Positions 7,673 through 57,506 of a stretch of DNA of 64,000 nt are shown piece after piece. A program made the position numbers and the translations under genes. Position 1 is the stretch's first letter. Each line of letters opens with the position of its first letter. Source of the DNA: Callorhinchus milii (taxonomy: Eukaryota). The stretch lies in NCBI RefSeq assembly GCF_018977255.1, contig NW_024704742.1, forward strand, positions 70,992,001-71,056,000. Direction: 5' to 3'. The notes beneath the pieces are model-generated. The model did not search any database. It had not been told where the DNA came from and saw only the letters and a program-made list of their open reading frames with translations.

Positions 7673-10405
7673 GTGAGAGGACGGGCTCGTGGGGGAATGG
7701 TGGGAGGAGCTGGAAACAACTGACAATTTTTGTTATTCTTGTTGAGTAAGGATATCAAGGGATATGGGGCAAAGGCCGGTATATGGAGTTGAGATATAGA
7801 TCAGCCATGATCTAACAGAATGGTGGAGTAGGCTCGAGGGGCGAATGGCCTGCTCCTATTCTTGTGTTCCTAAAATGTCATGCACTCGCCTCTCAAGCGA
7901 GAGAACCCGGGTTTGGTCCTCAATCCATGACTGTATGTGGGACACTGCTGTGTGCAATTGGCTGCCGCGTTTTGCCCACAAAATACAGTTAATCCACTTT
8001 ACAATATATTCTGTTAAGCGCTCTGAGGTGTCTCGACAACGTGATGAAGTGCTGTATAATAATAATTCTTGCATTTGATATAGCGCCTTATCATACCGAA
8101 ACCTTTTCAAACCCCCAAATAAAATGGGTCACTCACTTCATGGCTGTTTATGGGATGCTGCTGTGTGCAAATCTGCTTCCGCATTTGCCTGGAAAATACA
8201 CTACACTTCATAGTAAAATCATGTGAAGCGCTTTGAGATGCCTCAATGATGTGATAAGGTGCAAATGCAAGGATTATTACTGTTGTTATGAATTCCCTCA
8301 AATGATTTCTGATCCGTGGCTTTTCAGTTCCATATTGTCCTTTGGGAAAAGAGATTTTTCCCTGTCTCAGCCCTAACCCGAATAGTATATGAGGCTGCGG
8401 GATCATTAGATTGAAAGAGAAAAAGGGAGATAGAGGAAACTTCTGATAAGATGCTATCTCTATATTCTGGCATCACTGTAAAGTCAGAGGTAGTCTCCAT
8501 CTCTTAAATACTATTTCCTTTTAATCTTCCGGCCTCTGTGATCTTCGCGTCTGATGTGATGCAAGGAACCAAGCTGCCTCCATGTGCGTTTCCCCTTTAA
8601 GGCTCCTGATCGCAAGCTGGTGACTACGTTAATTTATCACCAGCAACCTGGAACCAAGTCCTGTTATGTAGTGGTTATACACTCGCCTTGCAAATGAGAG
8701 GACCTGGGTTTGATTCCCAGGCAGGGCGAAACCTTAGGCAAGTTTCCTTAATCCACACGCCTGTGTTTACCCAGCAGTAAGTAAAAACCTGGTTGTTAGT
8801 CGATTGGCAGATTGCCTTTCCGGGGTTAATAATCCTTCCAAAAAAAATCAATCTAAGACATTCCTATGCACAATTGGCTGCCATATTTCGCCCACAAAAC
8901 ACCCAGTCAATCCACTTTACAGTATAATCTGTGAAGCTTTGAAACATCTTAACTACATGATAAGGCGCCATATCAAATGGAAGGTTTATTATTATTATTA
9001 CTCTTTAACATTCCATAGCCATGAAACCTCCTCTTTAACAGTAAATGACTATAGAATCATCCATCCCTTTAACAGTACATACACATCTTTAATGATAAAG
9101 GTCACCCTCCCCTCTAATAATATTGACCCATAGAATCACCTTTGCCTTCAGCAATAAATGGCTAGAGAATTGCCCTTTCCCTTAACCATAGAATCGCCTG
9201 CCCCTTGAATAATAAAGCCCACCCTCCCCTTCAATAATATTGCTCCATAGAATTGCCCTCCCCTTCAACAATAAAAGGTTGTAGAGTGAAGGAGCCGAAG
9301 AGAGTGCAATAATATCCTCGACATTATTTTTTTTAACACACATGAGGCACCTCATCCTGCCTTTAACATCTTTGAACACCATGAGACGCTACTCCATGTG
9401 AAGAGCGTAATAGAGATATAAGGGATTTCTCTATAAGAGCACTCTATAAATGCAAGTTGTTGTTCTGAAAGCCTGTATACGCCACATCCACAGCTTTGCC
9501 TTTTTCTACACTCTGAGTTATTTCATCAAAGCATGCTGTTAGATTTGCCTTTAACAAATCTATACGGGTCTCATTTTTTTGGTCATCTGGGTGTCTGACA
9601 CAAGTGGAAACTCATCACTGTGTTCAACAGTCTCCAAATCAAACTGAGAATTCTACTTAGGCCACGTACACATGAAAATGTCATGTTGTAATTTACTTGA
9701 ACAGAGGTGAACGGACAGTAGCAACCATCCAGTCTTCATATCCAAGAACAGTGGATAATTTTAGCAATCAATCCCTATATATCACCTTTCCCTTTAAGTG
9801 GGTCTTGCTCCCCACTGGAGTTCTCTATTCTAATCCCATTTCCTGCTCTTTCCTCAGACCCTCTTGAAAATTTCTTTACAGTCTTTGCTTCAATAGCGAC
9901 TTATGGTGAAGGATTCCATGTTATCAGATAACTATTTGAATGATAAAACATTTCTAACCTCCCCTTTAACTTTTCCAGTGACAAAGCACATAGTATCCTT
10001 TCAACGTTTCAAAGGCTGTTACTGGATCTCTGTTCCATTCAAAATGTTCGCCTTCAAAACACCAGTCACTACACTTTACAGTGTATCCCGTGAAACACTT
10101 TGAGACATTAAAAATCCTGTGGCACTATTGGAAAAGAGAAGGGAGTTTCTCTTTCCCGGTATCCTGGCCAACAATCATGGCTGTTTACTGATGTGCGCAA
10201 ATTGGCTGCCAGATTTGTCTCCAAACACAGTCATTAAAATTGAGAGAATGAATCACTTTGAGACGTTTTCCTGATGTCGACCCTAGAACGATTCTATGGA
10301 TCCAGCTTTAATAGCCACTTGTGGGAATGAACTCTAACAAGCCTCTGAATGAAGTTCCTTCTGTCCTACCTGAAATAACCTGCACTTTTACCATTGGCTC
10401 AAAGA

Positions 10406-10800: not shown

Positions 10801-11615
10801 GCATCTGGTGTCCTTTCTTGCGAATTAGCAGGGCTCGCCCTGGTGTGTGTTGATTCAGCGTATAGTTTGTGTTAGCTTTGTAATGTTTACAACTAATGAA
10901 CCACCCAGTCATATAGCTCGTTCAGGGGTCAGCCAATGCTTAGTGTGGCTCACACAGTTTCCTTAAAGGGACATGTATTACAGTTGCTGGAACTGACACG
11001 CTGAATAATAATAAATAATAATAACAATCCTTGCATTTGATATAGCGCTTTTCAAGTCTTCTAGACATCTCAAAGTGCTTCATAGAATATATTGTAAAGT
11101 GAATTGACTGTATATTTGTGGCCGAAACACGGCAGTCAATTGCACACAGTAGTGTCCCACAAACCGTCGTGGATTGCATGACCAAATTATTTTTTTTGAG
11201 GGATTATTATCCCCAGAAAAGTGATCCGCCAATCAACTAACAACCGAGTTTCTACTTACTGCTAGGTAAACAGAGGTGTGTGGAGTAAGGAAACTTACCC
11301 AACATTTCGCCCTGCCTGGAATAGAACCCAGGTCTTTCGCTTGCATGGCGAATGCTCTAACCACTGAGCTACAGGACTTCATGATGGGGTGATTCTTCCC
11401 TGAGGGATCCAAAGCTGTGGGACAACAACTCAACAACTTGCATTTATATAGCGCCCTTCAAGACGAGGGGGTGGGGGGGTGGAGCAGAATCTCTGAGCGC
11501 TTAACAGTGTTCCGTCATCCTTACACCTGTTTGTGCGCTGCCCCTTCCTGGGCTAACCTCACCACCGCGGTCACTGTAACACTCAGTCCACATCAACTCC
11601 CTCTCCTCAATCCAG

Positions 11616-11722
11616 CTCTGCTTGTGGTGGAAACGGACACGTTCGGGAGTCACGTGCGGATCAAAGGGAAGGAAACGGGACATTACATCTGCATGAACAA
11701 GCGAGGCAAGATCCTGGGAAAG
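11616..11722 (+). CDS. fgf24: fgf24 internal exon ([36 protein letters not shown])
   Basis: tccag| acceptor and AAG|gtaaag donor; 107 bp, the conserved size of this exon in FGF8-subfamily genes. Phases join both neighbouring exons in frame. Confidence 0.87.
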
Positions 11723-11877
11723 GTAAAGAATGCTAGAAAATTTCACATTGTATGGATGTCTTCAATTGTTTCACAATACATCATTCACTTCATGGCAATT
11801 CGTGGGATGTTGACTGTGAGCAAATTGGCTGCTGCATTTGCCCACAAATACAGTAAACTCCTGATAACTCGTCCCAA

Positions 11878-43798: not shown

Positions 43799-44103
43799 AA
43801 TAATAATAATAATAATCCTTGCATTTGATATAGCGCTTTTCACATCTTCTCGACATCTCAAAGCGCTTCACAGAATAGACTGTAAAGTGAATTGACTGTA
43901 TAGTTGTGGGCGAAACACAGCAGCCAATTGCGCACAGCAGTGAGTGTCCCACAAACAGTCGTGGATTGAAAATGACCAATTTATTGTTGCTTTTTTTGAA
44001 GGGATTATTATTAGTCGTGTGGAGTAAGGAAACTTGCCCAAGGTTTCACCCTGCCTGGAATTGAACCAAGGCGAGTGCTCTAATCACTGAGCTACAGGAC
44101 TCC
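43799..44103 (-). mobile_element. Short-subfamily SINE, inverted relative to its neighbour
   Basis: Reverse complement of the same family, with a small head deletion. Confidence 0.85.
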
Positions 44104-46638: not shown

Positions 46639-47799
46639 ACAGTATATGCTTTTGAAGGTCAAGTAATAATTTTCAGAATGATAGATACCCTGTATGAGAC
46701 GGGTATATATAGCACCTTATCATGTCTGCGCGACGTCTCAAAGTGCTTCACAGAATACACTGTAAAGTGAATTGAATTGAAGTGAACTTTGTGGGCAAAA
46801 GGCTGCAGCCAATTGCGCACAGCAGCGTCCCACAAACAGTCATGGATTGAGTGACCAAATTATTATTATTTTTTCGGCCATACACAGCACTGGCCATATT
46901 GTCTGGGTTGGGGGGGGGGGGAAGACAGAGACGGTGCAGTAGATTTATCTATCTTTCCTTGACAACAGACAAACACACTAACAGAGTTATCAGCACTGGC
47001 CAAGGCCCTTTGAACATCAGCCGGGATTTAGAGTGCTATTGTTGTGTGTTTGGTTGTTAAAGGCTCTTGAGACACTGCCCTGCATGAAGGGTGCTATATA
47101 AATGTAAGCTGTCATTATTATTAGTTACACAGAATCACTTTCAAACTTCTTCACTGCTTTGCTCCTTCCTACCTCTGTGACCTGCTAACACCATACTGAC
47201 CTGTCCACTCAGCAGACTCTGGCCTGTTCCATGTCACCTGCCCAGCCCACCCCACTATCGGCGGTCTGACCTTCAGGCTCTCTGTCCATATCCTTTGGAA
47301 CTCCATGCCAGTCCCTCCGCCTCGCCCCCTCCCTTGCTTCCTTCAATGCCATCTCAAGACCCTCCTCTTCGACCATATGTTCGGTCACCCTATTCCCACC
47401 TTACCTGCCCTCTACCTCTCCTGATCCCAACTCCCAGCTTGGTGCAAATCCTTGACTGTCCAGCACCTTGGATGTCCTTCCGATGTGAAAGGCACTATAC
47501 AAATGTAATTTGTTGTTGTTATTGCACATACATATGGGTGACAATTATGTGTCAGCTTGGCTGTTAGCACTCTCGTGTGTGAGAAGGTTGTGGGTTTAAA
47601 GTCTCTGTATCAGGACTTGAGCTCACAGTCCAGGGCCACACTCGTGGGTGTTCTGAGAGAGAGTGCTGCATTGTTGGGCGAGTCCTTCAGACCAGGCATC
47701 AAATCAAAATGCTAACCTTGTTTGTGCAAAACAAAACTCAACAGTAATTATGTATAAAGAGTTTTGACAACATTGATGTAGAAAAAAGTTTTCATTGTT

Positions 47800-47805
47800 T
47801 TTATT
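47800..47805 (-). terminator. Candidate poly(A) signal of the antisense transcript
   Basis: Minus-strand AATAAA followed downstream by a GT/T-rich tract (gttgagttttgttttg), in repeat-free sequence. Confidence 0.45.
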
Positions 47806-48081
47806 ATACAGTAGAAACCATTATATTCACAATTTGATTATCAGAGCTCCAACACAGAAGTGAACGGGACATGTGATCCTGGCACGTGCACAGGGTTACA
47901 GGGTTTTGATATATCCTTTAACATGACTGTAAACAGACTGTTTATATTCACTGATCTGTTAGGGATAGGTTAGAGACTTGTAGAGCCATAGAGAAGGACT
48001 AGCACATTGTGGGTGCACTTCACTGTCCTTGTCAAGAATCAAACCTGACATGGGTGGGGAGGTGAAATCATACTGAAATCT

Positions 48082-49009
48082 TTAGGATGTCCTTTCAAAG
48101 ATCTTTGCAACCAGTGGATTCATCTCAAGTAAAGACTTTTCGCCTTTCAGAACACTTAATTCGTTCAGGGAGGATGTTCTGTAAACCTTGAAATGAAAAG
48201 TTGAGAGTGGGTTTATAGAGCACGCAAAATTGCAGACACATGAGCGTGGAATAAAATAAAAAGTTATATCGAGTGCAAGACAGATTAAAAATGTCCCCTG
48301 TATTATTTTCCTCCATCTCAAACAAACTTTGAGATGTCTCATGCAAGTATTTTTATTATTATTCATAAACTGTTTATAGACTTTTTCGGAGCGGCTTTGG
48401 ATGCCAGATACTTTGCCATCCATCTCAGTTGCTACACTCGCAGTCTCTTTTGCTTTCCCCGTGACCTCTTTTGCCATTTCTTTTCCAAGTCCTTGAAGGC
48501 AAACAGCCTTTGAATGGGAAAAAGTTTTGCGGGGGTTTACATTTTTTTTTCGAATTAGACTCCTGCCCAAAGCAATTTGAAAAATGATATCATTTTTAAT
48601 ATACAATGTGTTAGTCGATTGGTGATAATAATTATTTTGTTAAACAATCCAATAACTGTCGCCCACAACTCCACCCAAACCCACCCAATCTGACCACTTG
48701 GCTCAGTGCCCAGACTGGGGCACCTTCCCCCAGCCCTCCCGGCCACGGCGGCGACGTGATGACGCAGCGCGCACGAATTGACGCCGACAAGATGGCGAAC
48801 GCTATGCGGCTCCGCAATCAGCTGCAGTCGGTGTACAAACTGGACCCGCTGCGCAACGAGGTGAGCACGAGTCACCGGGAAGGAGGGACGCGGGCAATGG
48901 GGAGGGGGGTGAAGAGGATGTGGTGGCGAGGGGGCTGGAGCCGCGGCCGGTTGGGGAAACTCGCGGTGTCGATGTGACTGACTTACGCCGCTGGTTGGCG
49001 ACCGGCCAT
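48082..49009 (-). CDS. Putative small spliced antisense ORF (exons 49009-48987, 48562-48412, 48186-48082; 92 aa, no recognised family)
   Basis: aagATGg start, GC|gtaagt donor, gggcag| and ttttcatttcaag| acceptors, all phases compatible, TAA stop and downstream AATAAA. The second donor (AAA|gtatct) is weak and I recognise no homology. Confidence 0.4.
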
Positions 49010-49200
49010 CTTCTCTCTTACCTGTACGGCACTGGGAGTGCGCACTTGCACGCTTCGCGGATACGCATGCGCGGACTTGAGTGGCTGTATGGCACTGAGC
49101 ATGCGTAGAAGTGTGCCCACGACAATCGGCATAAGCCGTGGTTGGGGCGCCTGATTGGTACTGGGCATGCGCAGAGAGGACTGCACGGCATTTAACTTGT
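48610..49200. promoter_or_regulatory. CpG-island promoter region of pcgf1, apparently bidirectional or overlapping
   Basis: Strong local CpG enrichment. CCAAT boxes near 48617, 48649 and 48684, and on the minus strand at 49154-49158. CRE-like gacgtgatgacgca near 48753. YY1-like aagatggc on both strands (48789 +, about 49012 -). NRF1-like gcatgcg motifs at 49064-49072, 49099-49106 and 49165-49173. Confidence 0.75.
48792..48860 (+). CDS. pcgf1: Polycomb group RING finger 1, coding exon 1 (MANAMRLRNQLQSVYKLDPLRNE)
   Basis: aagATGg start context and GAG|gtgagc donor. AMRLRNQLQSVYKxDPLRNE is the PCGF1-specific N-terminus. Lies in a CpG-rich island. Confidence 0.93.
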
Positions 49201-49329
49201 GAGGCGGCAGACAAACCTGTCCATCTGTCTGTCAGGAGGTGTCAGTGATAATAATACTTAGCATTTAGTATAGCATCTTATCAGGTTTTTGAGATGGCAT
49301 AAAGCGTTTCACATGATGTACAAATGAGC

Positions 49330-52300
49330 AAAGAGCCTGAGGAGGGAACTGAGTGAGGTGGAACAGAGTGAGAATTCTGTTAAGGAATTTGGTGAGAGTG
49401 GGAATTAGGTGCAGAGGGGGAAAGAGGTGCATAATTATAAAGTATATAAGGTATGTTATAATAACATAAAACATGTCTGGGAATATGGCGGGGCAGCTGA
49501 AACAGGTTGCATGCACGATGTGTGCTATGTGGAAACTCCAGGATGCTTTGTGTGCCCTGGACAGACATATGCAGGAAGTGCCTCCGGCTGCTCGAGCTTG
49601 ATTGAATGTGTCAGGAGGTGGTCACCCCACAGCCACAGAAGGCATGGTAGGAAGAGGGGACGGGCAGTGCAGAAATCCCCTGAGAGTGTGGCACTCACAA
49701 ACCGGTTCTCTGCACTGAATACCAGTCGGGGTGATGACACCTCTTGGGAGGGGAGTCAGAAGCAAATGGATGCACAGGGGGACACAGGAAAGAGTGTCAG
49801 TGCAAATTGTCATTGGGGACACAATGGTGAAAGGAGTAGACAGGCAGTTCACAACCAAAATGTGACTCTCGCATGATATGTTGCCTCCCTGGTGCCAGGG
49901 TTGAAGACATCACAGAATGGGTGCAAAACACTCTACAGGGGGAAGGGGAACATCGAGAAGTTGTGGTCCATGTTGGGATCCATGATGTAGGGAAAAAAAG
50001 GGCTGATTTCCTAAAGGGAGAGTGTCAGAAGTTAGGGAAAAGGCTGAAGAGTAGGACCTCAAAGGTGGTGATCTCTGTATTACCCCCAGTGCCTTGTACA
50101 AGTGAGTATCAAAACAGCAGGATGAAACACATGAATGCATGGCTGGAGAATTGGTACGTAAAGTAGGGCTTCAGGTTCCTGGGTCATTGGGACCAGTTCT
50201 GGGCAGATGGGACCTGTACCTGATGCACCTGAATAGGGCTGAGACCAATGTCATCACAGGGAGGTTAACCAGTTCTGTGGGGAAGGGTTTAAACTAATTT
50301 TGAAGGGGGGAAGGGAATCAGGATGCAGCATTAGAGAGGACAAACAAGTTCCATAGAGGGCTGGGAGAGACGAATAGCAATGTAATAAGGAGTAATCCAG
50401 AAAAAGGAGGGATTAGACAGGGGAGAAATGCAGAACAGACTAAGTCGGTCTTGGAGTGCATGTGCATAAATGCACGGAGTGTGATAAATAGATTGGTGAG
50501 CTGCAAACTCAAGTTGCCACGTGGGGTTATGATGCAGTTGCAATAACAGAGACCTGGCTCAAACAAGGGCAGGAATGGGAACTGAATATTTCTGGCTACA
50601 GTGTATTCAGGAGGGATAGGGAAGGAAAAAAAAAGGAGGGGGGTTGGCAATATTGATTAAAGACACAATTACGGCCCTGGAAAGGCACGAAACAGAATCT
50701 GTTTGGTTAGAGCTAAGGAGCAGAAAAGAAGCTGTTACTCAGTTAGGTGTATACTATAGCCCACAAAATAGTGGGGAGGAGATAGACAAGCAGATCTGCA
50801 AGCAGATTTCAGAAAGATGCAAAATCAATAGGGTAGCGATAATGGGGGACAATTATCCTAACAGACTGGCAAAATAACAATGTGAGGGGGAAGGATTCCT
50901 GAAATTTGTGCAGGATAACTTTCTGGACCAGTATGTTTCCAGCCCAACGAGGAAGGAGGCAGTGCTGGATCTAATTCTGGGGAGTGAAATGGGGTAAGTG
51001 GAGCAGGTTTCATTAGGAGAGCATCTGGACAACAGTGATCACATCATCATTAGGTTTAGAGTACTTATGGAAAGGGACAAGGAACTATCAAAGGTGAAGA
51101 TATTTAACTGGAGGAGGGCTAATTTCAGTGAGGGACCAAGCCAAGGTGGACTGGAAAGAAAACTTGGTAGGTAAAACAACTAACGAGCGATGGCAAGCCT
51201 TCAAGGAGGAGCTAGTTCGGAGACACAACAAATGCATTCCCACAAAGGGGAAAGGTAGGGCATCCAAAAATCCCTGGATAAATAAGGAATTGGGATTAAA
51301 ATAAATCAGAAAAAGGAGGCTTATGATAAATGTCAGGTCCAAAATACAGAAGATAATCAAATAGAATATAGAAAGTTCAGAGGAGAACTGAAAAAGGAAA
51401 TAAGAGGGGCAAAGATATTGTATGAGAAAAGATTAGCAGGTAACATAAAAGGGAACCCTAAGGTATTTTATAAGTGTATCAAGAATAAAAACTTAGTCAA
51501 AGGTAGGGGTGGGTCCAATTAGGGACCAAAGAGGAAACCTTCTCGTGGAGGCAGAGGGCATGGCTGACGTACTGAATGAGTCTTTGCATCTGTCTTCACA
51601 AAAGAGGATGCAGCCAATGCTACAGTATTGGAGGAGAGGGTAGAGAAATTGTATAAAATGAGAATAAACGGAGAGGAGGTACTGTAATAATAATTCTTGC
51701 ATTTGATATAGCGCTTTTCACATCTTCTCGATGTCTCAAAGTGCTTCACAGAATAGACTGTAAAGTGAATTGACTGTGTATTTGTGGACGAAACGCGGCA
51801 GCCAATTGCGCACAGCAATGTCCCACAAACAGTCATGGATTGAAAATGACCAATTTATTATTGTTTTGTTTTGGAGGGATTATTATAAGTCGTGTGGGTT
51901 AGGAAACTTGCCCAAGGTTTCACCCTGCCTGGAATTCAACCCAGGTGTCTCGCTTGCAAGGCGAGTGCTCTAACCACTGAGCTACAGGACTCCAATAGTA
52001 GAAGGATTGTCAGTATTTAAGGTAGATAAGTCACCCAGTCCGGACGGGATGCATCCTAGGTTACTGAGGGAAGGGTGGAAATAATGGAAGCTCTGACCAC
52101 AATCGTTCAACCCTCCTTGGACACCGGGATGGTGCCAGAGGACTGGAGGGTTGCAAATGTTACTCCCCTGTACAAAAAGAGGTAGAAGAATAAACCCAGG
52201 AACTACAGGTCAGTCAGCCTAACATCAGTAGGGGGGAAACTTCTAATAATAATAATAATAACTTCTAGACTATAAACCGGGACAAAATACATTTTCACTT

Positions 52301-53262: not shown

Positions 53263-53529
<267 letters not shown>

Positions 53530-56944: not shown

Positions 56945-57097
56945 TCTGTAAGAGCTGCATAGTGAAGTATCTGCAGACCAGCAAATACTGTCCGATGTGC
57001 AACATCAAAATCCACGAGACACAGCCCCTGCTCAACCTGAAGCTGGACAGGGTGATGCAGGATATCGTCTACAAGCTCGTCCCAGGCCTGCAGGAGA
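56945..57097 (+). CDS. pcgf1: pcgf1 exon 3 ([51 protein letters not shown])
   Basis: ttgcag| acceptor and A|gtaagt donor; 153 bp; completes the RING finger; near-identical to vertebrate PCGF1. Confidence 0.95.
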
Positions 57098-57506
57098 GTA
57101 AGTCCATCTGCCTAACCCATAGCAGCCTCATGTCACAGTCAAACGATATCAACCGCACGCGCTGCCCGCACATCACAGGCTCCTGTACTGCACCCTCTGG
57201 TTCTACCTTACAGTAGAGAACCCAATACTTGCACTGATCACACTAGCCTCAATCTTGACAACAATAATAATAATCTTTGCATCCTTCCAAACTCAGCAAA
57301 AACGGGATTAGTTGCATTGTTTCATTGTGTGTGGACGGTGGGAATGGAGAGGGGGGGGAAGGACTGACAGATTTAGGTGCTGCTTTGGTAACATTAAGTC
57401 ACTGCGCTTCGAAGTAATTGATTGTGGAAAGCACGGTGAGGTGTTTACACTGTGTAATCTAAGGATTAATTTTTGATTTAACTGGGGATTGTGTTCCTTT
57501 TCACAG

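Follow-up and report, generated by a model that had tools for sequence, protein, structure and literature searches.

The window, a stretch of 64,000 nucleotides of the Callorhinchus milii (elephant shark) genome, carries the 5′ end of pcgf1 on its plus strand. Exon 1 of this gene spans positions 48774..48861 (ATG at 48792, donor after 48861), and a downstream exon that matches PCGF1 chains identifies the gene. In all four sequencing runs whose contigs were examined (see below) the longer contig matches up to 48861 and then continues with other sequence; the 5′ ends of these contigs lie at 48774, 48774, 48823 and 48780. The exon is embedded in a CpG island (48600..49300, CpG observed/expected 0.83–1.04), which holds both the pcgf1 start and a candidate antisense start. 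Between position 44,000 and 50 kb past the right end of the window this is the only strong CpG island.

The initial annotation had proposed an antisense three-exon gene on the minus strand, whose first intron would contain pcgf1 exon 1. A candidate downstream-antisense promoter is suggested by motifs within pcgf1 intron 1 (49065..49171, minus strand), namely a CCAAT box, which is indeed present on the minus strand at 49158–49154, and three GCATGCG elements, which we take to be sites for NF-Y and NRF1, respectively. The three GCATGCG elements exist, but on the plus strand (49065, 49099 and 49165) and not on the minus strand as claimed; one of them can also be read on the minus strand (49070), and none of the three is a full GCGCATGCGC. 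All further letters named for the minus strand were recovered: AAGATGG with its ATG at 49009, the donors CAG/GTAAGA at 49021 and GGC/GTAAGT at 48986, the acceptors ending at 48563 and 48187, a 151-nt purine-rich exon between them (48562–48412, 63% purine) followed by a donor at 48411 that is as weak as stated (AAA/GTATCT), the TAA ending at 48082 and the AATAAA at 47805 (47800..47805). A second minus-strand AATAAA is found at 48357, inside the putative intron 2. Among the 67 GT sites of the region, scored with an approximate matrix, CAG/GTAAGA (49016..49024, minus strand; the intron would begin at 49021) is the strongest candidate donor with 7.4, while 48986 scores 0.8 and 48411 scores −0.7 (rank 12). 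TGG/GTGGGT at 48684 takes rank 4. The best donor is located upstream of the ATG at 49009.

Joined as proposed, the signals do give 92 codons plus a stop from 23, 151 and 105 nt, with a putative coding exon 1 at 48987..49009 and a putative exon 2 at 48412..48562 (both minus strand). The putative intron 2 of 225 nt is also stop-free in frame, as had been noticed, so that the whole frame extends over 185 codons from stop to stop. When two sets of 200 shuffled sequences of the region were treated with equally lenient rules, 8 and 12 of them yielded a three-exon model of at least 90 aa, as did 5 of 180 real tiles (1.4 kb each) from the window; the joined ORF alone is therefore unremarkable. An open frame of 185 codons is rarer and appeared in 1 of 1000 shuffles, with about 70 such tiles per window.

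Most of this frame can be traced to another gene. Positions 48037..48510 (minus strand) match spliced prelid1a in a blastn search (E 2e-86, 358 of 482 columns identical); the match begins at the exon 4/5 junction, passes the stop and extends over about 290 nt of 3′ UTR. The parent gene lies on the same contig and strand, 5.6 Mb from the copy, has an intact ORF over four exons that carry PRELI, and matches Callorhinchus milii PRELID1a with 100% identity in the last exon. Searches with this last exon gave 55 hits among 138 candidates, the named ones being nearly all PRELID1, and nothing in the PDB. In the copy, the frame at 48480–48364 matches PRELID1 residues 180–216 (52% over 40 aa). From about 48510 downwards, over most of its length, the putative exon 2 consists of the decayed C-terminus of PRELID1, part of which still keeps the original reading frame; this ancestry explains the purine-rich, protein-like look of the exon. 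The former PRELID1 stop region and UTR make up the putative intron 2 as well as the coding portion of exon 3. The 5′ exons are absent, 1-nt and 4-nt insertions interrupt the coding part, the PRELID1 frame is broken after about 20 residues, and a 45-nt SINE tail was inserted just before the old stop (48332..48376, plus strand; the AATAAA at 48357 belongs to it). A SINE-tail remnant in intron 2 had already been suspected, and a three-way alignment shows the insertion as a gap in the parent. About 11% substitutions have accumulated on the branch of the copy. Judged by its significant homology to a functional parent together with these disabling changes, the stretch 48510–48037 is a pseudogene fragment of PRELID1. 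An assignment of the paralogous hits to a transposon was rejected, since exon structure and protein match identify prelid1a. Likewise, 40 matches initially taken for copies of exon 2 turned out to be the SINE tail at 49298–49248.

The fragment is probably a retrocopy of prelid1a. A 10-bp direct repeat, AAAACTTTTT, is found at 48519..48528 and, 8 nt after the AATAAA, at 47783..47792 (both minus strand). It occurs only these two times in the window on both strands and is a candidate target-site duplication. Flanks sharing 10 nt were seen in 26 of 5000 random pairs and 6 of 446 AT-rich pairs, figures that apply to a repeat found post hoc, and none of 195 other stretches following an AATAAA shared 10 nt with the left flank. 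The likeness of the 47805 context to the parent's signal was equalled by 5 of 194 control AATAAA sites. The proximal AATAAA of the parent lies 348 nt after its stop, and the signal at 47805 was possibly inherited from it. Between the two ends, about 190 nt of the terminal exon (47850..48036, minus strand) have no parent match and gave only a self match in the genome search; a broad local alignment revealed no significant 3′ likeness beyond 48037 (136 of 2000 shuffles and 50 of 566 tiles were as good), and the UTR family profile gave no additional match from 48120 to 47520.

It is rather unlikely that the copy came from the prelid1a locus through duplication at the DNA level or through break repair. 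Such an origin would agree with the position of the parent on the same contig and strand and with a copy that starts almost exactly at the acceptor of the last exon, crosses no exon–exon junction and lacks a clear poly(A) tract at its 3′ end. On the other hand, no trace of the parental intron was found upstream despite 86% identity just downstream: 272 of 1000 shuffles matched the intron end as well as 48600–48502 did, and 528 of 1000 did so for exon 4. The 10-bp repeat, which brackets the copy from its 5′ flank to past the parent-like AATAAA, and the existence of further 5′-truncated copies of the same UTR also speak against it. This alternative concerns the origin of the copy only and is otherwise compatible with a non-coding antisense RNA.

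We then asked whether the frame bears signs of a protein. No homologue of the unspliced 159-aa frame containing exons 2 and 3 was found among 5.8 billion proteins of 30–279 aa (searched as 87–279 and 30–86 aa) or among 1.84 billion cluster representatives. A Pfam search of the frame gave sub-threshold matches only (Ykof, E 0.064; ATAD4, E 0.13), which were dismissed as chance in view of the PRELID1 origin. The PRELI domain (PF04707) had no match in the frame, and none of its 15 genome matches fell in the window. The dN/dS check asked for by the initial annotation did not favour a coding gene: 17 non-synonymous and 5 synonymous changes on the window lineage give a combined omega of 0.89 (exon 3, 7 and 3, omega 0.75; putative intron 2, 10 and 2, omega 1.1), an estimate that rests on 22 changes, has low power and is compatible with weak or recent selection. 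Changes in exon 3 are distributed as 3, 4 and 8 over the codon positions, with third positions slightly enriched, and non-triplet indels separate the three copies of the alignment within the exon 3 frame. Gap-free identity to the parent is 106/122 in the old coding part, 84/101 in the exon 3 coding sequence and 119/137 in the supposed intron. Because the supposed exons are no more parent-like than the supposed intron, we see no constraint on the frame. Inheritance from PRELID1 accounts for the 185-codon open frame in part only. Thus, the proposed micro-gene resolves into a decayed PRELID1 last exon and 3′ UTR lacking a homologue and codon constraint, the 92-aa protein is most likely a mirage assembled from pseudogene remnants, and the fallback of a lncRNA is the better reading.

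Fourteen sequencing runs share part of the stretch; none is recorded as RNA, but ten, from three studies, are presumed to be RNA. Assembled contigs, which carry no strand, start or level, were examined for four of the ten. The runs behave as RNA, because in all four the pcgf1 contigs depart from the genomic sequence at the donor of exon 1, and silent stretches have zero depth. Contigs of runs X2, X4 and X6, which represent three studies, stop exactly at 48186 without unaligned letters. The contig of X1 corresponds to 47794–48071; it stops at 48071 instead of 48186, and its other end lies 6 nt past the AATAAA at 47805. Contig depth over the terminal exon is 12–31. The acceptor had been named beforehand and is one of 16 AG positions in 315 nt. 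A 30-mer shared with the parent does not explain the contig break, because the longest exact match is 20 nt; the AG context of the acceptor is also present in the UTR of the parent. These contig ends hint weakly at a minus-strand RNA that is spliced and polyadenylated, with a last exon of about 400 nt (48186–47790, minus strand), whose acceptor would be a cryptic site in the old prelid1 3′ UTR.

The contigs thus support the last acceptor and the 3′ end of the transcript proposed earlier, but not its junctions, none of which was bridged in the four runs among the matches listed. Exon 2 (48412–48562), intron 2 and 48928–49001 had zero depth in all four runs among the matches listed, in contigs that drop minor isoforms and short dead ends. 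Exon 2 is not hidden by a display filter, since the index shares of the runs (0.23, 0.22, 0.17, 0.13) fit the aligned pieces alone (0.27, 0.24, 0.18, 0.16) better than the pieces with exon 2 (0.34, 0.31, 0.26, 0.23). In one of the four runs a strandless contig of depth 3.2 covers 49003–49175. The 5′ exons of the RNA are not seen in the contigs, so that its overlap with pcgf1 exon 1 is putative. Direct splicing from 49021 or 48986 to 48186 would leave short frames only, of 22 or 14 codons counted from the closest ATGs.

We consider it likely that the locus gives rise to a non-coding antisense RNA from the pcgf1 CpG island, built on the probable prelid1a retrocopy. According to this model, a prelid1a fragment made up of the last coding exon and the adjoining part of the 3′ UTR was copied, probably as a 5′-truncated reverse transcript of a short-UTR mRNA, to a site that lies on the strand opposite to pcgf1, about 260 bp before its start. 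The copy has decayed as a pseudogene by the insertions, SINE tail and substitutions described above. The pcgf1 island, of the unmethylated type, presumably drives minus-strand transcription too, and its motifs point to the CCAAT/GCATGCG cluster in intron 1 as the most likely source. A short first exon would end at the strong donor 49021 and may be spliced, as the contig ends weakly hint, to the cryptic acceptor at 48186, with polyadenylation after 47805. Donor, acceptor and poly(A) signal together could stabilise an otherwise short-lived antisense transcription, the product being a non-coding RNA. Such an RNA would resemble both a convergent-promoter (downstream antisense) RNA and a retrocopy that uses the promoter of a neighbour. 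Among the publications listed by the literature searches, none deals with this locus or with copies of prelid1 in C. milii.

Both components have precedents. Convergent promoters at this spacing are common in human cells, with 2–2,301 bp (median 413 bp) between the starts at CpG islands, according to the part of PMC11735407 consulted here. The candidate start at pcgf1 resembles the downstream antisense RNAs described there in lying about 250–400 bp past the host start within the same CpG island; those RNAs are known from human cell lines, whereas the pcgf1 antisense start is a candidate and its RNA is seemingly stabilised by a pseudogene-derived terminal exon. Retrocopies lying head-to-head within less than 2 kb of a gene, gain of 5′ exons and intronization have been documented (PMC4772013, in excerpt). 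Retrocopies of the human HTR7P1/HEBP1 type, which use the bidirectional CpG-island promoter of a neighbour, share with the present case a parent fragment within 2 kb in opposite orientation, a CpG island, a 5′ exon that is probably new and a splice site that arose within parental sequence (same excerpt). At pcgf1, however, the last exon and UTR alone were copied, the coding remnant is not part of the expressed exon, the antisense RNA may begin beyond the host start (convergent instead of head-to-head), and the status as a retrocopy is probable. PRELID1 (PF04707) and its pseudogenes, such as human PRELID1P6 (PMC8249232, in part), are related by sequence source, the chimaera copy being derived from the C-terminal tail and 3′ UTR of C. 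milii prelid1a; it is an independent copy, lacks the PRELI domain and has lost the frame. Human LBX2-AS1 is likewise a lncRNA of the PCGF1/LBX2 neighbourhood that is antisense to PCGF1; it sits where LBX2 begins, close to the 3′ end of PCGF1. The elephant shark RNA lies in a similar neighbourhood but at the pcgf1 5′ end and consists of PRELID1 sequence, and no homology between the two is expected.

The exon at 48186–47790 could instead terminate an ordinary divergent (head-to-head) lncRNA that starts a short way upstream of pcgf1, around 48750–48690, and does not overlap pcgf1 exon 1. Divergent transcription is the default at CpG-island promoters, the donor at 48684 would be usable, and very short first exons could explain why contigs stop at the acceptor. 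We regard this as unlikely, since intron 1 contains the motif cluster and, at 49021, a much stronger donor; the low-depth contig of a single run is found there as well. The classes of transcription at such promoters are set out in PMC11735407 (in the part available).

A regulatory role of the RNA, which might damp pcgf1 by transcriptional interference or act as a decoy for regulators of prelid1a, is quite unlikely. Convergent overlap would be geometrically allowed with a start in intron 1, the RNA is sense to prelid1a and includes about 150 nt of 83%-identical UTR, 64 of the 378 7-mers in the last exon are also present in the UTR of the parent, and a role has been reported for a human PRELID1 pseudogene RNA (PMC8249232, in part). 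The copy shows no sequence constraint, however, and convergent promoters in human cells tend to be positively co-regulated rather than mutually repressive (PMC11735407, same part).

It is highly improbable that the exon ends a longer minus-strand transcript starting beyond 49500, inside or past pcgf1 or as read-through from an lbx-type gene about 45 kb off, and spanning the entire pcgf1 5′ end. Upstream partners outside the examined stretch would share only 30 letters with it at the assembly k of 31 (PMC12424806, in part) and could escape notice, and an lbx-type homeobox gene does lie on the minus strand (L048, about 9260–9400), but the 65 kb to the right hold no other strong CpG island, apart from a weak one near the homeobox gene, and at least ten presumed-RNA runs from three studies, the low-share ones partly examined, would fit a housekeeping promoter better than a homeobox gene.

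A three-exon gene for the 92-aa (or an alternative 56-aa) microprotein is just as hard to maintain. Given the homology it would be a young chimera of new 5′ codons, about 20 PRELID1-tail residues in the old frame and translated former UTR, that is, a gene at birth from a retrocopy caught by a convergent intron 1 promoter, with the parental poly(A) signal and new splice sites. Its frame would have stayed open despite several indels that compensate one another and a SINE insertion in frame, a combination we hold to be very improbable as a whole. All of its signals exist and join without a stop in between, the stop being in the last exon; contig ends agree with the last acceptor and with the 3′ end, and the unspliced frame is open across several indels and the 45-nt insertion. 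Against this stand the lack of any homologue or annotated product of 30–279 aa, an omega of about 0.75–1.1, the low rank of the exon 2 donor, a best donor whose use would remove the ATG at 49009, the assembly of such models in 5 of 180 real tiles, and the PRELID1 ancestry of exon 2.

The main value of the analysis is a correction, by which a plausible orphan microprotein resolves to a pseudogene remnant. The non-coding antisense RNA, if real, would be a non-mammalian case of CpG-island antisense transcription that becomes a stable spliced RNA through a gene fragment lending its splice acceptor and perhaps its poly(A) signal. The elephant shark genome is among the slowest-evolving vertebrate genomes.

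Besides the copy at pcgf1, the 3′ UTR of prelid1a itself deserves mention. It ends in a retroposon tail, and many 5′-truncated copies have that tail too. No clear target-site repeats were found around 15 of these UTR copies. A short-parent-branch test of the distal UTR, which used the 13 of 16 aligned copies with enough overlap, gave the parent the shortest branch in 16 of the 58 triples, with medians of 0.103 and 0.111, and did not separate mRNA retrocopies from a repeat family. The shared tail suggests a route by which mRNAs may be mobilised by LINEs that otherwise recognise their own 3′ ends only, and this side finding may outweigh the main result.

On the minus strand, window 48510-48037 carries a decayed fragment of prelid1a, the C. 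milii PRELID1a gene, and this fragment accounts for most of the three-exon micro-gene proposed in the initial annotation (its exon and intron labels are kept here in quotation marks). A DNA search of the genome revealed two further places resembling window 48501-48052. One of them, on the same contig at a distance of 5.6 Mb, is the final exon of a gene with PRELI in its upstream exons; four exons of this parent gene splice into an intact frame, and the last exon shows 100% identity to the C. milii sequence named 'PRELI domain containing 1a'. The match between the window and the spliced parent begins at the exon 4/5 junction, passes the stop and takes in about 290 nt of 3′ UTR (358 of 482 columns, E = 2e-86), and a 4-nt insertion near 48424 shifts the frame of the copy. 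The peptide of 'exon 2' (48562-48412) matches PRELID1 residues 180-216 (52% over 40 aa). The SINE-tail remnant noted in 'intron 2', between donor 48411 and acceptor 48187, is a 45-nt SINE tail just before the old PRELID1 stop. Given the extent of the match, the frame shift and the SINE tail, 'exon 2' is mostly PRELID1 tail, and according to the layout of the match the former stop region and UTR make up both 'intron 2' and the coding stretch of 'exon 3' (from 48186 to the TAA at 48082). The UTR of the parent also has the acceptor seen at 48187, where it is silent as far as known. The window copy is to be classed as a PRELID1 pseudogene fragment. The SINE tail also carries a second AATAAA (48352-48357, minus strand), at which unspliced or exon-2-terminal RNAs could be terminated prematurely.

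The unspliced 159-aa frame containing exons 2 and 3 (P0001) was used as protein query. Among proteins of 87-279 aa it yielded eight candidates, none at E ≤ 1, and no match was obtained among proteins of 30-86 aa or among 1.84 billion representatives. All Pfam matches stayed below threshold, and the copy is not a PRELI protein. Gap-free identity to the parent is similar throughout, at 106/122 for the former coding stretch, 119/137 for 'intron 2' and 84/101 for 'exon 3'. With changes in the window lineage polarised by a third copy, exon 3 shows seven non-synonymous and three synonymous changes (omega 0.75), and 'intron 2' read in the same frame ten and two (omega 1.1). By codon position the exon 3 changes number 3, 4 and 8; as the counts are small and third positions slightly enriched, weak or recent selection on the frame is conceivable. 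The pseudogene origin, the decay and the absence of homologues in these searches are shown by the data, and with no homologue and no coding constraint at these few changes, the predicted 92-aa protein is not supported; its sequence is a PRELID1 remnant.

Nevertheless, the signals on which the protein was built are real. Promoter motifs, splice sites, TAA and AATAAA are all found at the positions given for them, and the pieces of 23, 151 and 105 nt join into 92 codons plus stop. Assembling such a model is not rare: under equally lenient rules, a three-exon ORF of at least 90 aa followed by AATAAA arose in 8/200 and 12/200 shuffles and in 5 of 180 real window tiles. 'Intron 2' is stop-free, as had been noted, within an open frame of 185 codons (48082-48639, minus strand), which appeared in 1 of 1000 shuffles and is locally rarer than the joined model; per whole window it is a ~7% event. 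The frame is AT-rich and stays open despite non-triplet indels and the 45-nt insertion. It is explained in part only by the parent's UTR, whose corresponding frames are already open over 39 and 76 codons.

Part of the stretch is present in ten runs, guessed to be RNA, of three studies; DNA-like runs contain 0.80-0.94 of its words. In all four runs compared (X1, X2, X4, X6) the pcgf1 contigs part from the genome sequence at the donor of exon 1 and silent stretches have no cover, thus the runs behave as RNA. In X2, X4 and X6, from three studies, contigs end exactly at 48186 with no unaligned letters, in line with the acceptor (48187/48186) of the postulated terminal exon, but no contig bridges a splice joint. 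Since the longest exact match between copy and prelid1a is 20 nt, the break is not due to a shared 30-mer. Assemblers of this type end contigs at branches and trim away short dead ends; stops at 48186 would fit at least two short upstream partners. Logan contigs derive from a k=31 graph after simplification by Minia3 (PMC12424806). The X1 contig covers 47794-48071 and ends 6 nt beyond the AATAAA at 47805. The minus-strand AG and AATAAA suggest that the terminal exon lies on the minus strand. These data give a weak hint of a spliced, polyadenylated minus-strand RNA with a last exon from 48186 to about 47790, and such an RNA is probably real. At 47935, X1 and X4, not X2, carry A>G (plus strand), most likely an allele as the change is T>C on the presumed RNA strand.

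The RNA would start at the pcgf1 CpG island (48600-49300), which contains pcgf1 exon 1 (48774-48861, plus strand; an exon further downstream matches PCGF1 chains). If a non-coding RNA is indeed made, a start in pcgf1 intron 1 appears fairly likely. Ranking the 67 minus-strand GT sites in 48190-49400 with an approximate matrix placed 49021 first (score 7.4); 48986 scored 0.8 and 48411 ranked 12th. Donor 49021 sits between the CCAAT and GCATGCG cluster, which it follows closely, and the proposed ATG (49009). From the nearest ATGs, direct splicing to 48186 gives 22 codons from 49021 and 14 from 48986, while for an RNA starting far enough upstream to include them, ATGs at 49102-49191 would open frames of 45-83 codons. 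A divergent start using donor 48684 is possible, as is a distant start. A single 174-nt X1 contig (depth 3.2) at 49003-49175 spans the candidate antisense promoter and first exon and could be pcgf1 pre-mRNA. A further SINE-tail remnant (49248-49298, minus strand) lies just upstream of this candidate promoter.

A strong donor, the cryptic acceptor and the poly(A) signal would stabilise the RNA, which presumably makes no protein and has no function. It would resemble downstream antisense RNAs and retrocopies that use the bidirectional promoter of a neighbour and acquire 5′ exons or splice sites within themselves; for the head-to-head arrangement, 11 cases in human and 12 in mouse are reported (PMC4772013). 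Convergent promoters in human cells are described at CpG islands with a median of 413 bp between starts, and as co-regulated more often than mutually interfering (PMC11735407). The suggested interference with pcgf1 expression is possible but not the default. Literature searches returned nothing on this locus among their best-ranked matches.

The copy was quite probably retroposed from a short-UTR mRNA of prelid1a. Two post hoc hints point this way: the copy is flanked by a 10-bp direct repeat that has no other occurrence in the window (48528 to 47783; 26 of 5000 random pairs were as good), and the window AATAAA resembles the parent's proximal signal (5/194 controls as good). However, a broad alignment of 48040-47600, seeking likeness to the parent, was not significant, and copy and parent share contig and strand, as a DNA duplicate might. 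No exon junction is crossed, the 99 nt upstream matching neither exon 4 nor the intron end. The copy is only probably a processed pseudogene.

The last exon and 3′ UTR of prelid1a (L004 1340-2370, G000:C1:65.431-65.432 Mb) have copies elsewhere (L005, L007-L025). About 900 nt past the stop, the UTR closes with the 3′ half of a common SINE, at whose end stands ATTAAA. When 901 nt of last exon and UTR were searched against the genome, 22 places matched, the query locus and the window among them; of the remaining 20, 16 come within 20 nt of the tail end and break off 35 to 734 nt upstream (5′-truncated), and four are internal pieces. The dispersed copies end in the SINE tail and have diverged from a common source by about 0.1 substitutions per site. 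The longest (L003/L005) lies antisense near an exon (L003 2190-2245, plus strand) whose motif looks like that of a WWE-domain PARP. Stringent-type LINEs are reported to require the 3′ end of their own RNA, and C. milii is listed with a SINE/CR1 pair (PMC3747384); CR1 is described as probably restricting the hitchhiking of mRNAs (PMC5470649). An mRNA bearing such a tail may therefore be copied. We lean towards mRNA copies mobilised via the retroposon tail; the rival reading is a repeat family that itself forms the prelid1a UTR. The poly(A) signal of mouse Prelid1 is also described inside a transposable element, L2 (PMC4352877).

Further pcgf1 exons (RING part, RAWUL part) lie on the plus strand at window 53383-53485 and 56945-57100 and at L046 3503-3592 and 5134-5238. 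Convergent with pcgf1, an Lbx-type homeobox exon lies about 29 kb right of the window (L048 ~9260-9400, minus strand); since human LBX2 is co-oriented with PCGF1, an inversion may separate the two lineages. An FGF exon (window 11615-11728, plus strand; PF00167) presumably belongs to fgf24, by synteny with pcgf1 and lbx2. Three near-identical loci at 4.35, 4.37 and 4.42 Mb of contig G000:C16 (L034, L035, L036) apparently form a tandem segmental repeat.
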